Assembly: GCA_019057635.1 (NCBI GenBank)
Contig: DXJL01000011.1
Location: 1-16,368 of the forward strand
Reading direction: 5' to 3'
Length of the DNA stretch: 16,368 nt
DNA from: Candidatus Heimdallarchaeota archaeon
GTDB lineage: Archaea > Asgardarchaeota > Heimdallarchaeia > Hodarchaeales > Hodarchaeaceae
Shown here: piece by piece, positions 1-9,027 of the stretch
Layout of the letters: each line of letters opens with the position of its first letter
Numbering within the stretch: position 1 is the first letter of the stretch
Notes under the pieces: generated by a model
What the model was told of the DNA's origin: nothing
Databases searched by the model: none
What the model saw: only the letters and a program-made list of their open reading frames with translations
Made by a program: the position numbers and the translations under genes

Positions 1-1356
1 ATTGCTTTCTATTTAAAAGAAGTGCTTGTAGAACCTTCCAACTTTGATGCATTATTTGTAACCATGGTAACTTTTTCTGCAAAGCTTAGTGAGGGCTTAA
101 TTAACGTGCCTGTCGCTCGATTTTCCGATAATATAAGAACAAGATTTGGTAGAAGAAGACCATTTTTTTTGCTTACTCCCATCTGGGTGTTCTTTTTCGT
201 ATTAACATTTGCCTGTCCATTTGATGAAACATACCTCATACTTTTGTGGCTTCTTCTCGCATATGGGGGATTTCGATGGACTAATGCAGCGGTTGTAAAT
301 CCGTACCTTGCCCTTCTTCCCGAAATAGCACCAGAGGAACATCAACGTACTATTTATAATTCATATCGTACCTTATTTGTTTTACTCGGGACAATAATTG
401 GAGTAATAAGTTTCCCAATTTTACGAGGTTTATTTGTTGGATCTTTTGGAGAGTCAAAAATAACCGCATTTTATGCTACACTGCCAGTTGCGTTCCTAAC
501 ATTCATTGGCATGGTAGTAGTATTTTTCGGTGTAAAAGAGAATCCTAATGTGCCAGTAACCCAATTTGGTATGATAAAATCCTTTAAAGAGACATTCAAA
601 AATAAAACCTTTTTTCCTAGCTATTTGGCCACTGTCAGCGCCCTCATGCTAGCTGAATCTATGCTCCTTGCCTCGCTTCCGATGATTGCTCAAGATTATA
701 TTGGTCTCTCCCCCGATGATTTGATGGTATCTTTGATTTCAGGGATATTTGTTGTATCTGCAATAATATCCATTCCATTTATCACCAAACTTTCAAAACG
801 GGTCGGTAAAGCCAGATTGTATTACTATTGCTGTTTGTCTTTCGGTATATTGGCTTGGTTAATTATTTTTATCGGTCAGGTTCCATTTATTACTCCAGAA
901 AATTCCGTGTCTTTTACAGTGAGTGCTGATGACACAATTCAAGCTGTAACTAGCTCCGAATGGAAAAATTTTGCATTACTTCAGACTATTCTGACAATTA
1001 TGATAGTTGGTATTCCGGTTGGTGGTGTTATGGTGCTAGGCTATTCTGTCTTCTCTGATGTCATTGATTTCGATGAAAAACACACTGGTCAAAGAAGAGA
1101 ATCAATGTATTTTGCCGCACAAGGTGTAGTAGACTGGTTTTTTGCTGCTGCAGGGGATCTCATTCTTGGAATTTTACTTACACTTTTCGGAAGAGAATAT
1201 TTCTCTGATGCAATTACAACAGAATCTGGTCTATTAAACACTGGGCCAGCTGGGTTGCTTTTAGTTGGGCCCGTAGCTGGAGTTATACTTCTTCTCGGGG
1301 CCTATATGTTTCGGAAATACCCATTAATGGAAGAAAAGAAGAACAAAACAACATAA
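1..1356 (+). CDS. MFS transporter, GPH/MelB-like sugar-glycoside:cation symporter family (5'-truncated by the window edge)
   Basis: Frame 1 is open from base 1 (IAFYLKEVLVEP...), so the true start lies upstream. It has many hydrophobic segments and GPH motifs: SDNIRTRFGRRRPF, NPYLALLPEI, FKETFKNKTF, LSKRVGK and SDVIDFDEKHTGQRRESMYFA. Confidence 0.9.
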   Translation: MAFYLKEVLVEPSNFDALFVTMVTFSAKLSEGLINVPVARFSDNIRTRFGRRRPFFLLTPIWVFFFVLTFACPFDETYLILLWLLLAYGGFRWTNAAVVNPYLALLPEIAPEEHQRTIYNSYRTLFVLLGTIIGVISFPILRGLFVGSFGESKITAFYATLPVAFLTFIGMVVVFFGVKENPNVPVTQFGMIKSFKETFKNKTFFPSYLATVSALMLAESMLLASLPMIAQDYIGLSPDDLMVSLISGIFVVSAIISIPFITKLSKRVGKARLYYYCCLSFGILAWLIIFIGQVPFITPENSVSFTVSADDTIQAVTSSEWKNFALLQTILTIMIVGIPVGGVMVLGYSVFSDVIDFDEKHTGQRRESMYFAAQGVVDWFFAAAGDLILGILLTLFGREYFSDAITTESGLLNTGPAGLLLVGPVAGVILLLGAYMFRKYPLMEEKKNKTT

Positions 1357-1804: not shown

Positions 1805-2763
1805 AATCCTGTATCCTTGGTTAATTTTGCTCGTAACTTTTCTATCATTTCTTTCGTCATTTTAGCTAGATCATACTCGGGATCCCAATTCCATTCTGCC
1901 CGTGCAACTGAGTCATCAACTGACTGAGGCCAAGAATCCGCAATTGCTTGCCGAAAGTCGGGTTTATAATCAATGGTAAAGTCTGGAATGATTTCTTTGA
2001 TAGATTGAGCAAGGATTCCTGCACTAAAACTCATAGAGCCAATATTAAATATTCTGTGCTTTAACTTGGCGTTATCAGCTTCAGCTAAATCAATCAATCC
2101 TTTTATGGCATCTGGCATGTACATCATAGGTAAAACAGTATCTTCCCGAACAAAACACATGTATGATCCTTGTTGTACTGCATCATAATAAATAGCTACA
2201 GCATAATCTGTGGTTCCTCCACCTGGAGGTGTCTCACTGCTAATAATACCAGGATATCTGACAGAGCGAACATCTACCCCATATTTATGATGGTAATAAT
2301 CAGCAAGTAGTTCTCCTGCGACTTTAGTGACCCCATAAATAGTAGTTGGCCGTAAAATCGTGTCATTAGGTGTATTCACCTTCGGGGTATCCGGTCCAAA
2401 TACTGCAATCGATGATGGCCACATAACGCTAATATCGTATGTACGAGCTACCTCTAAGACATTGTATAACCCATTCATGTTAATATCCCAGGTTGACTGT
2501 GGTTTATGTTCCCCAACGGCACTTAAGATGGATGCCATATGATAAATCGTGTCAACATTATTCTCAAAAGCAGTTTTTTCTAAATGATTACGATCCAAAA
2601 CATTCAGGTAACAAAATGGGCCATTGTTCTTAATATAAGCTGGAAGTTGTGTCCGTCGACCTGTAGCAATAACTACAGCATCTTTCCCATAGTGTTGACG
2701 TAGAGCCGTCACTAATTCAGTACCTATTTGACCAGCAGCACCAGTAACAAGTATATTCTTCAT
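1801..2763 (-). CDS. L-threonine 3-dehydrogenase, SDR (GalE/epimerase-like) type
   Basis: Rossmann motif ILVTGAAGQIG and catalytic YGVTK (YxxxK). Also SDR-TDH signatures LSAVGE, PSSIAVFGP, VRYPGIIS, PGGGTTDYAV, LPMMYMPD and RQAIADSWP. Confidence 0.9.
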   Translation of the reverse strand: MKNILVTGAAGQIGTELVTALRQHYGKDAVVIATGRRTQLPAYIKNNGPFCYLNVLDRNHLEKTAFENNVDTIYHMASILSAVGEHKPQSTWDINMNGLYNVLEVARTYDISVMWPSSIAVFGPDTPKVNTPNDTILRPTTIYGVTKVAGELLADYYHHKYGVDVRSVRYPGIISSETPPGGGTTDYAVAIYYDAVQQGSYMCFVREDTVLPMMYMPDAIKGLIDLAEADNAKLKHRIFNIGSMSFSAGILAQSIKEIIPDFTIDYKPDFRQAIADSWPQSVDDSVARAEWNWDPEYDLAKMTKEMIEKLRAKLTKDTGF

Positions 2764-3157
2764 AAAAAATCCCTTCAGGCCTTAATCAGTTTGTATACTT
2801 CAATGGTTATTTGATTTCTTATCCCATTCATCTAAAAATATAGAGGAGAGAACCACGAAGAGAAGGAAAAGAGTAGTAAATAGTAAGGAAAACAAAATTA
2901 ACCTAATTAAATGAATCCATTACAACTTTAATTTCCCGTTTCTCATGGATTTCAGTCATCCCTTTTTCCCAATCAATCATATTTACACGATGCGTGATAA
3001 TATTATTTTTAAGCTTATCCTGCAAGTTTTTTGACTTTAAGAGCCCTTTCATTACTTGCTAAGTTTGAAATTTACGTCGGCCAGCAATTCCAAAAACTGA
3101 TGTTCCCTTACTAATCATCAATGAATTAATATCAAATTCAATTGATCCTGGAAAGAA

Positions 3158-3330
3158 CCGTTCTGAAAGACTTACCCAAATAGGACAGCTAGGAATAATT
3201 TGGAAAAATTATTCTTAACTATCTTTGGAGCTGTTCTTCCTGATTCAGCGACGCGAGCCGGCATTAATGCTGGTCTTACCGCCTCTCCACAGGCGTTTAA
3301 AGTCTCCGCAGAACTCTCGGCGACGGGAAA
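3158..3330 (-). ncRNA. putative TnpB omegaRNA (reRNA) scaffold, copy 1; guide would continue into 3157-3138
   Basis: The pattern AACGCCTGTGGAGAG...GTAAGACC...GAATCAGGAA is typical of tnpB 3' ends. Pairings seen: CCTG/CAGG, hairpin CCAGCAT-TA-ATGCCGG, long hairpin CCAAA-GATAGTTA-GAATAATTT / AAATTATTC-TAGCTGTC-TTTGG, and a possible AAGAC/GTCTT pseudoknot next to the element end. The 5' boundary is approximate. Confidence 0.7.
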
Positions 3331-3559
3331 TACACATGACTTTTCTGCTTGATTAGCAGCTTTTCTTCTTATAAACCTACTAGCCCTGTAATCATAAACA
3401 AATTTGCTTGTTTCCCGTTATTCTAATATCAAGAAGTTACAGATCGCGTCATTTTAGGTATAATCGCATGAGATCGGTTGAACACTCTGTTAATCATGAA
3501 TTTTAATCTCTACCCCTTCCTCTAAGATATCCTGCCTTCTATTTCTCTTCTTTCCCTAA

Positions 3560-3591
3560 TGTCATCTTGTCCTTAAATGTCCATATCTGTC
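3560..3591 (-). repeat. phased GACA direct repeats at the element left end (candidate TnpA binding sites)
   Basis: TGTC occurs on the + strand at 3560, 3568, 3578 and 3588. The equivalent motifs in copy 2 are at 8913, 8930, 8940 (TGGC) and 8950. Confidence 0.55.
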
Positions 3592-4016
3592 AATCTATCC
3601 GACAACAGTATTGACCCCTAGTAGAGAAACACGACCACCATACGTTAATGATTCTAAACCGTGTTTGAGAGCATAAATATTCCCTGCCATTTCAAGAAGA
3701 ACATTAACTCCTACTTCATCTGTTGCATCTTTAATAATTTTAGGAATTTTCTCCCCTTCCCCTCGGGTATTAAAAACCATATCTGCACCTAGCTTTTTTG
3801 CAGTTTCTAACCTCAGTAAATTATTTCCACCAGCTGTAACGAACACTTGTCCTGCCCCAAGCATTTTTACTTCTGGGATGGCCATGAGACCAATAGGGTC
3901 AGCACCAGTGATGAGAATATTTTTACACGCAATATCTTCAATATTATCTTTGGGTAATATAGTATGAACTGCATTTCCTTATCACATAAGATGCTTGTCT
4001 GATATGATACTCAACC

Positions 4017-4871
4017 CTAGAATAAGGGATGGTTACTAATAAGGAGCTCAGGATTACCTTTCTGGGTATTGTTCATATCATTATAGGTATTATAGCCTAA
4101 TATGTAGAACTGACTGAAAATTTCCCTGATAAGAGGCGTATCACGATTTGATAAGAGCCAGTGAATTGGTAGAGAAGTTAGGAGATCTTTCAATTTATCA
4201 ATATCAATTTGATTATATTTTTTCCCGTACAATGAGCCTTTTTGAGCAACATCATGATATGGGGGGTCTAAATAAAGGAAATAATCTATTAAGTCATCAT
4301 CTGGAGAGAGCGAAACTATTATCTTTTTATAATCAAAATTAGTGATTCGCACCTTTTTGTTTTCAAATATCTGATGGATAAAACGCCACATTTTTGGTTT
4401 ATTCTGATACCATTTTCGATGGGCTTTCTCATGACTATATCCACCTCCAGCACCATTCGGAGAGCAATTGAGAATTACCAATCTTCTTATTGCACGATCC
4501 AATGTTTTGGAGGGATTAAATTGTTTCCAGTGATAGTAATCATCCCTTGTGACTGGCTCTAACGATTTTATGGATTCTATGAGTAGTTGTAGTAAAGTTG
4601 AATCCTGCATACAGCTTAACAATGAAAATATTTCTGGATCTTTATCATTTAACCATACTTGTGAAATTTGGGGAGATAAGGCAATGAAAACATTGGCTAA
4701 GCCAGCAAATGGTTCAACAAAATATTCTATATGTTTAGGAATGGACAAATAAAGTGGGAGATGTTTTTTCTTATCACTTTTACCTCCAGGAAAACTGGCA
4801 ATTGTGGTGCGCTTGGGGAGAAACAATTGTTCGTCTAATAAACGTGAGTTATCCCACATTTTCTCCATCAA
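4017..4871 (-). CDS. DNA adenine methyltransferase, Dam/D12 class
   Basis: Motifs FPGGKS, SAM-binding FVEPFAG, WLNDKD, catalytic FLYLDPPY, WLLSNRD and C-terminal ELLISN. The start is uncertain by a few codons. Confidence 0.88.
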   Translation of the reverse strand: MMEKMWDNSRLLDEQLFLPKRTTIASFPGGKSDKKKHLPLYLSIPKHIEYFVEPFAGLANVFIALSPQISQVWLNDKDPEIFSLLSCMQDSTLLQLLIESIKSLEPVTRDDYYHWKQFNPSKTLDRAIRRLVILNCSPNGAGGGYSHEKAHRKWYQNKPKMWRFIHQIFENKKVRITNFDYKKIIVSLSPDDDLIDYFLYLDPPYHDVAQKGSLYGKKYNQIDIDKLKDLLTSLPIHWLLSNRDTPLIREIFSQFYILGYNTYNDMNNTQKGNPELLISNHPLF

Positions 4872-8446: not shown

Positions 8447-8508
8447 CTTATTGTCTCCTTGTATGAACGCCAAGTTTATTCTTTATTATTTCAGTCTAGA
8501 TTGTTATT

Positions 8509-8681
8509 CCGTTCTGAAAGACTTACCCAAATAGGACAGCTAGGAATAATTGGGAAAAACTATTCTCAACTATCTTTGGAGCTATTCTTCCTGATTCAGC
8601 GACGCGAGCCGGCATTAATACCGGTCTTACCGCCTCTCCACAGGCGTTTAAGGTCTCCGCAGAACTCTCGGCGACAGGAAA
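8509..8681 (-). ncRNA. putative TnpB omegaRNA scaffold, copy 2; guide would continue into 8508-8489
   Basis: Same motifs as copy 1. Hairpin CCGGTAT-TA-ATGCCGG is fully paired. The stem substitutions relative to copy 1 give G-U pairs on the minus strand (GATAGTTG/TAGCTGTC, GAATAGTT/AATTATTC). Confidence 0.7.
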
Positions 8682-8979
8682 GACCCATGACTTTCCTGAT
8701 TGATTAGCAGTTTTTCTTCTTATAAACCTACTAAGCCCTGTAATCTACAACAAATTTGCTTGTTTCCCGTTATTCTAATATCAAGAAGTCACGTAGTGCG
8801 TCATTTTATGTATAATCTCATGAGATCGGTTGAACACTCTGTTAATCATGTATTTTAATCTCCACCCCCTTCTCCTAAGATATCCTGCCTTCTATTTCTC
8901 TTCTTTCCGTGATGTCATCTTTTCCTATTTGTCTCTAAATGGCCATATCTGTCAATCTATCCGACAACAGTATTGACCC
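8509..8979 (-). mobile_element. non-autonomous IS607-family (tnpB-derived) element, copy 2 (intergenic)
   Basis: Aligns end to end with 3158-3617 and is 11 bp longer (a 9-bp left-end unit plus two 1-bp indels). Minus-strand junctions are TTTAAAG-GG-GTCAATAC...TTTCAGAAC-GG-AATAAC. Confidence 0.85.
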
Positions 8980-9027
8980 CTTTAAAAATTACATCCTTTG
9001 AGATAAAAGAATGTTAGATATCTATGT

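Follow-up and report, generated by a model that had tools for sequence, protein, structure and literature searches.

The sequence analysed here, referred to below as the window, is a stretch of 16,368 nucleotides that forms contig C75 in the genome assembly (3.19 Mb in 214 contigs, 91.6% complete, 36% G+C) of a Hodarchaeales-like Asgard archaeon. It carries two copies of a 458–469-nt repeat, both on the minus strand, one of them within the remnant of a threonine dehydrogenase-like gene (tdh) and the other between genes. The features relevant to the analysis are the following:

2905..3954, minus strand: remnant of the threonine dehydrogenase-like gene tdh, split by copy 1 and lacking its N-terminal half
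3158..3615, minus strand: MITE copy 1, 458 nt, inside the tdh remnant, gene and element in the same orientation
8509..8977, minus strand: MITE copy 2, 469 nt, intergenic, 91% identical to copy 1
3616..3619, minus strand: host AGGG bordering copy 1 on the left; target, predicted TAM and, in its GGG, a Gly codon of tdh
8978..8981, minus strand: host AGGG adjoining the left end of copy 2
3138..3157, minus strand: right flank of copy 1, predicted omega-RNA guide template and target half of the donor joint
8489..8508, minus strand: DNA to the right of copy 2, predicted to template the guide
3158..3324, minus strand: predicted omega-RNA scaffold of copy 1, 167 nt ending in ...CAGAACGG, its 5' part corresponding to the last tnpB codons of the parent elements
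3369..3375, minus strand: TATA-like box TTTATAA, conserved between MITEs and parents and, in the MITE, located 44 nt before the scaffold
3555..3593, minus strand: left-end array of GACA direct repeats in copy 1, spacing about 8–10 bp, candidate TnpA binding sites
92..95, plus strand: unoccupied AGGG target reading ...GTGAGGG/CTTAAT, at which the sister genome G002 has a MITE copy exactly in place

Copy 1 has the minus-strand sequence ...CTACTAGGG/GTCAAT...CAGAACGG/TTCTTTCC, where slashes mark the element borders and the right flank begins TTCTTT, and copy 2 reads ...TTTAAAGGG/GTCAAT...CAGAACGG/AATAAC, letter for letter as in a preliminary description of this DNA. The same description had claimed that deletion of positions 3158–3615 restores the tdh frame, and the comparison with a known protein structure bore this out. 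The tdh pieces on either side of copy 1 align without gaps to the Pyrococcus TDH (PDB 2dfv), with the upstream piece stopping at residue 266 (LLG) and the downstream match pairing query residue 2 with residue 268 of 2dfv, so that its first residue is 267. From this gap-free alignment it follows that exactly 458 nt were inserted, with ambiguity confined to a GG, and therefore that removing 458 nt restores the frame. The remnant itself comprises only the C-terminal half of the gene and carries an in-frame TAG at the position of a Trp conserved in homologues; a Dam-like DNA methylase frame with a DPPY motif (4017–4871, minus strand) occupies the place of the missing N-terminal half.

No terminal inverted repeats were found at the ends of the window copies. 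By eye, the copy alignments show about five GACA units in the left end, at intervals of 8–10 bp. Copy 1 is missing one 9-nt unit of this array (window 3546–3566, minus strand) that is present in all other full copies. The TTTATAA box is a putative promoter. The guide-template role assigned to the right flank of copy 1 is predicted by analogy with TnpB biology as described in 10.1101/2023.11.20.567912.

BLAST searches of the genome revealed eight full MITE copies and many more truncated by contig ends, a second subfamily about 71% identical (contigs C51 and C125), and three longer parent elements (C104, C139, and C152). In these parents, the two halves of the MITE lie about 1.2 kb apart, separated by DNA that encodes a TnpB of 426–439 aa; the MITE thus consists of the parental left end, about 280 nt, joined to the last 167–173 nt of the parent, which include the final tnpB codons and the region downstream. 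The RuvC and zinc residues of the parental TnpB proteins are invariant (D199, E283, D365, and four Cys), and the proteins match the Pfam families HTH_OrfB_IS605, OrfB_IS605, and Cas12f1-like_TNB, as well as the NCBIfam model guided_TnpB above its cut-off. The parents carry tnpB only and the MITE is gene-free, with tnpA present in neither.

The preliminary description had proposed (A)GGG as the target from two copies, a preference that holds across the genomic copies. At 17 of 18 left junctions GGG abuts the element, the exception being GGTG in C176, and the G run is preceded by A in 16 of the 18 (C in C178 and T in C139). Right ends read CAGAACGG, ending in GG, in 22 of 23 cases, and the next base is T in 15 of the 23. 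Given that AGGG occurs genome-wide at a frequency of 0.0022 per position, this junction pattern is far beyond chance. Three subfamilies could be distinguished by their left termini (GTCAAT.., TTGACAAT.., and (A)TTGATAAC..), all of them starting after GGG, and in other records of the Hodarchaeales GGG was present at 5/5 left junctions and CAGAACGG at 11/11 right ends.

The insertion sites were then compared with G002, a sister genome of the same genus in which the flanks of the window sites are 93–96% identical. The sites of copies 1 and 2 are both unoccupied in contig C54 of G002, where they read ...TTTACTAGGGTTCTTTCC... (ACTAGGG/TTCTTT) and ...TTTTTAAAGGGAATAACAATC... (TAAAGGG/AATAAC), identical base for base, except for one flank polymorphism, to the empty sites reconstructed beforehand. 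Further empty sites were found for the copies in C111 (...TATAGGGGGTATCG, the insert lacking one G that copies 1 and 2 have) and C82 (...CTTAGGGTTATTAC), and in the reciprocal case a G002 copy occupies the site that is empty at 92–95 of the window. An autonomous IS607 element in C56, whose right end reads ...AATGG, also has its empty counterpart in G002 (...TCAGGG/TAAAC), whereas for the copy in C137 the other flank had no match in G002. Together with the copy in C153, this gave seven comparisons, all of them showing host GGG with the right flank directly after it. Five of the seven empty sites have AGGG immediately ahead of the flank, C111 and the C153 site of G002 have GGGG instead, and GG is present at the exchange point in all seven. 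These comparisons substantiate the earlier claims that AGGG is host sequence and that GG is common to both ends. Similarly, the expectation that long variable duplications would be missing stood in six of the seven, in which no duplication beyond the ambiguous bases was detected, but not at C153, a single outlier with a 10–12-nt junction repeat.

Judged against the empty sites, the left end starts with G in copies 1 and 2 and with T in C82, and this first base is missing from C111 and the copy of G002:C54, an observation that points to slippage within the G run or to an exchange register that varies. In the neighbourhood of the target at 92–95, G002 is devoid of about 1 kb that matches window positions 187–1223.

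Empty sites of the kind that the preliminary description proposed to look for were therefore found in the sister genome, but none appeared in the contigs of four public runs examined over positions 2700–4100, where no contig bridges 3158–3615, contigs being blind to rare excision products. In the best-matching of these runs both junctions of copy 1 were occupied, and loose contig ends at 3157 and 3618/3619 coincide with the repeat borders. The circle junction (right end–GG–left end) gave 0 matches in the assembly, whose contigs cannot reveal rare forms.

The outlier copy (C153:770–1270 of this genome, G000; locus L038) has CAGGG-TTGCTAAATA-CTG... at its left junction and ...AACGG-TTGCTAAATA-ATACG at its right one. 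The repeated 10–12 nt (GGTTGCTAAATA) are present once in the empty site (G002:C44, L048) and resemble a target duplication, the sole such case among 16 elements. A left-end variant, xTAAATA.., is common to C82, C153, and C176, and at C153 it shares a 6-nt microhomology (TAAATA) with the target; the repeat may have arisen from a secondary repair or slippage event through this microhomology with the left end. The idea that the start of the left end generally copies the right flank was rejected, as the first ten bases matched their own right flank at 3.5 of 10 positions and mismatched flanks at 3.0 of 10 among the 16 elements, with C153 alone standing out.

In order to describe the putative guide RNA, the last 167 nt of 22 distinct copies, taken from the genome and its relatives, were aligned and found to be conserved. 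The RNAalifold consensus comprises 34 pairs, five of them with compensatory changes, GGAAGA and the terminal UCUUUC among others forming a long-range helix; the single-sequence fold was better than that of shuffled sequences (z = −3.19). No known RNA family gave an Rfam match at gathering score anywhere in the window. However, the scaffolds of two relatives, L043 and L051, showed sub-threshold matches to RAGATH-18 (RF03064) on the correct strand, at 24 and 23.3 bits, where the gathering score is 44.9; the core motif of the ISFba1-type RAGATH-18 guide RNA, CCUGUGGAG...UGAAxCAGGAA, could be recognised in the scaffold, in the window copies by reading the alignment. In PMC11061315, RAGATH-18 RNAs are reported with IS607 TnpB only. 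Differences from the ISFba1 type were evident too, since the relatives reached no more than 23–24 bits on that model and neither window copy matched it (Rfam searches of copy 1 and of the right end of copy 2, E up to 10, returned chance-level hits or none), and the RNA of the present family overlaps with tnpB at its 3' end, unlike the RNA of PMC11061315, which is described there as coding-independent.

Taking these results together, we propose, with a probability of about 80%, that the 458–469-nt repeat is a non-autonomous MITE of the IS607 type that carries a TnpB guide-RNA scaffold and moves in the following way. It would have originated from a tnpB-only element by loss of almost the entire tnpB gene, keeping the left end of about 280 nt, with its phased GACA repeats and TATA-like box, and the right 167–173 nt with the omega-RNA scaffold. 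A serine-recombinase TnpA acting in trans would exchange strands at GG and, because this dinucleotide is found both at the right end of the element and in the host 5'-AGGG, the element would enter and leave without duplication or scar, presumably with formation of a double-stranded circle upon excision. RNA read from the right end would run on into the flank, and the parental TnpB, guided by it, would cleave AGGG plus flank once the element has left, whereupon recombination would restore the copy; the occupied site would be spared, as its right-end junction reads ACGG and not AGGG. AGGG as the TAM, predicted from the junctions and from published IS607 cases, and scarless excision are both well-founded predictions.

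A more specific version of this scheme, which we regard as rather unlikely, would make the MITE a self-promoted guide-RNA gene. The internal deletion would have joined the tnpB promoter, that is, the TATA-like box, to the scaffold, and each copy would guide a borrowed TnpB against its own vacated AGGG. The repeat at C153 would then be a natural repair scar, in which the left DNA end kept the first target bases and was joined through TAAATA to an incompletely copied left end.

Regarding the transposase, exchange at a GG core and insertion behind a tetranucleotide in the manner of IS605 cannot be told apart by the junctions alone. Two tnpA-tnpB elements are present in the genome (C54 and C56), with TnpA proteins scoring 168.5 and 166.8 bits on the NCBIfam IS607-transposase model (cut-off 110), while no Y1 transposase (PF01797) was found in this 91.6% complete genome or in G002. 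Across 22 genomes of the genus, Y1 was detected in 2 and IS607 TnpA in 9, in 5 of them above the cut-off. A comparative set of 80 loci encoding TnpB relatives (34–92% identity) was also analysed. A serine-recombinase gene ends at the tnpB start in 25 of them, to which Pfam adds two (27/80), and no Y1 was found among the 71 frames of 100–330 residues scanned with Pfam upstream of the remaining 55 loci. The nearest relative with a serine tnpA belongs to the same genus (L063, G008:C59) and has a TnpB 60% identical; none of the 12 closest loci (at least 77% identity) has a tnpA. Copy pairs of autonomous relatives (L087/L090, L065/L067/L068, L062/L063, and L098/L107) begin after GGG and end in ...AACGG, and other autonomous relatives end in ...GCGG or ...GCAG.

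The mechanism of the IS607 type, with a serine TnpA, is therefore favoured for the element on comparative grounds: the serine tnpA genes at 27/80 related tnpB loci with no Y1 among the scanned upstream frames, the two IS607 TnpA genes in a genome without Y1, the ...AACGG end and GGG border shared with autonomous relatives, and the lack of inverted ends and, in 6/7 empty-site comparisons, of duplication. The preliminary description had made the same assignment, which gains support from these data for an element that itself contains no tnpA. Several observations count against this reading: tnpA is missing from the MITE, its parents and the 12 closest loci; the tnpA of C56, the best candidate for a mobiliser, has an in-frame TAG at codon 4; G002 has many copies of the element, yet no IS607 TnpA above the cut-off; and there are the junction repeat of C153, the GGTG of C176, the varying first base of the left end, and the sub-threshold RAGATH-18 scores.

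The element in C56 (C56:27140–29370, L131) is an autonomous IS607 that carries tnpA and a tnpB of 544 aa; it follows CAGGG at the point where a zinc-ribbon gene has its stop codon. Seven nucleotides, GGTAGAC, are identical at both of its junctions. The GAACGG by the tnpB stop had been considered as its right end and was ruled out by the empty site of G002, according to which the element extends another 47 nt past this stop and closes with the GG of ...AATGG.

The alternative of an IS200/IS605-type, PATE-like element, which a Y1 HUH transposase would insert as single-stranded DNA 3' of AGGG, is compatible with the junctions, as IS605 elements also insert 3' of a 4-nt motif without duplication. 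Each subfamily has a small palindrome at its left terminus, as read from the alignments, and the TnpB scored slightly higher on the IS200/IS605 NCBIfam model than on the IS607 one (282.7 versus 243.8 bits), although both values are below the cut-offs and give no family assignment. We nevertheless consider this alternative improbable in view of the distribution of Y1 and serine tnpA genes described above, of the terminal GG and AACGG common to autonomous relatives with a serine tnpA, and of the phased direct repeats of the left end, similar to those of IS607 ends (PMC6188088).

Less probable still is an IStron, in which a group I intron fused to the transposon would splice from the tdh mRNA. 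IS607-family IStrons whose splice sites are the transposon borders are known (10.1101/2023.11.20.567912), and such an arrangement would explain the sense, frame-keeping insertion of copy 1 within tdh and a left end that, at about 280 nt, is long for a transposon end. However, no group I intron was matched in Rfam at E up to 10 in copy 1 or up to 5 in a parent, no CCCU-like internal guide able to pair with AGGG was seen by eye near the 5' end of copy 1, and only one of the eight full copies lies in sense orientation inside a long open frame, in a gene that was already a truncated pseudogene. Finally, a classical DDE-type MITE, with GG as the remnant of a short target-site duplication, could draw on the direct repeat of C153 and the 7-nt junction identity of the C56 element, but it can practically be dismissed, as terminal inverted repeats were not found, six of the seven empty sites contradict it, and the similarity between left end and right flank is not general (3.5 versus 3.0 of 10).

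The features on which the IS607 reading relies have precedents, since earlier publications on IS607 elements report a GG core, a preference for (G)GG, and TAMs rich in G, namely TGGG and GAGGG (PMC6188088; 10.1101/2023.11.20.567912; PMC11061315). According to PMC6188088, IS607 of H. pylori, IS1535, and ISC1926 have GG at their termini and in the target, prefer (G)GG, produce no duplication, and have no inverted repeats but short direct repeats near the ends. The MITE family shares all of these with them and differs from such autonomous tnpA-tnpB elements in having lost tnpA and, in the MITE, also tnpB. For TnpB of the ISFba1-type IS607 elements, TAMs of AGGAG in 18/22 strains and GAGGG in 4/22 are given in PMC11061315.

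The closest parallel in logic is CboIStron, an IS607-family element of C. botulinum, which according to 10.1101/2023.11.20.567912 has a serine TnpA, a GG core, and scarless donor joints. As reported there, its TnpA and TnpB both specify TGGG, its scaffold ends in UCGG, and position −3 separates self from target; moreover, a mini-element devoid of tnpA and tnpB was mobilised in trans. The present family has the same GG core and, by prediction, a TAM equal to its target, here AGGG, opposed to a scaffold end in ACGG, but it differs in its archaeal host, in having A instead of T at −4, and in having no detectable group I intron. Its natural copies are tnpB-only or gene-free, and, unlike CboIStron, it is known from sequence alone.

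Another parallel is offered by the PATEs, gene-free derivatives of IS200/IS605 that often encode omega-RNAs used in trans (PMC10055086). Like them, the MITE is gene-free and keeps its ends and guide RNA, with TnpA and TnpB predicted to be needed in trans; unlike them, with their palindromic ends and Y1 transposase, it has non-palindromic ends with a GG core. TnpB clades are reported to switch between Y1 and serine partners (PMC10691335). A survey of archaeal insertion sequences covers IS607 and Asgard archaea, and its available text makes no mention of the present element family (PMC13343696); our literature search found no description of it.

The seven occupied/empty pairs, all with (A)GGG and a GG core, cleanly document insertions of the IS607 type as they occurred naturally in an Asgard archaeon. 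They change nothing in the mode of action published for IS607 and TnpB, and would add that IS607-type elements, like those of IS605, yield gene-free derivatives that keep the guide RNA. In addition, a TAM and a guide scaffold of 167 nt can be predicted for an archaeal TnpB that is intact, about 430 aa long and testable as a compact editor. If the MITE were indeed a self-promoted guide-RNA gene, it would be an archaeal, IS607-type counterpart of the PATEs that encode omega-RNAs.

A second omega-RNA-like scaffold, of 184 nt, was also observed in a related record of the Heimdall group (L053:4862–5045), directly 3' of a complete tnpB element, as a tandem or nested right end.
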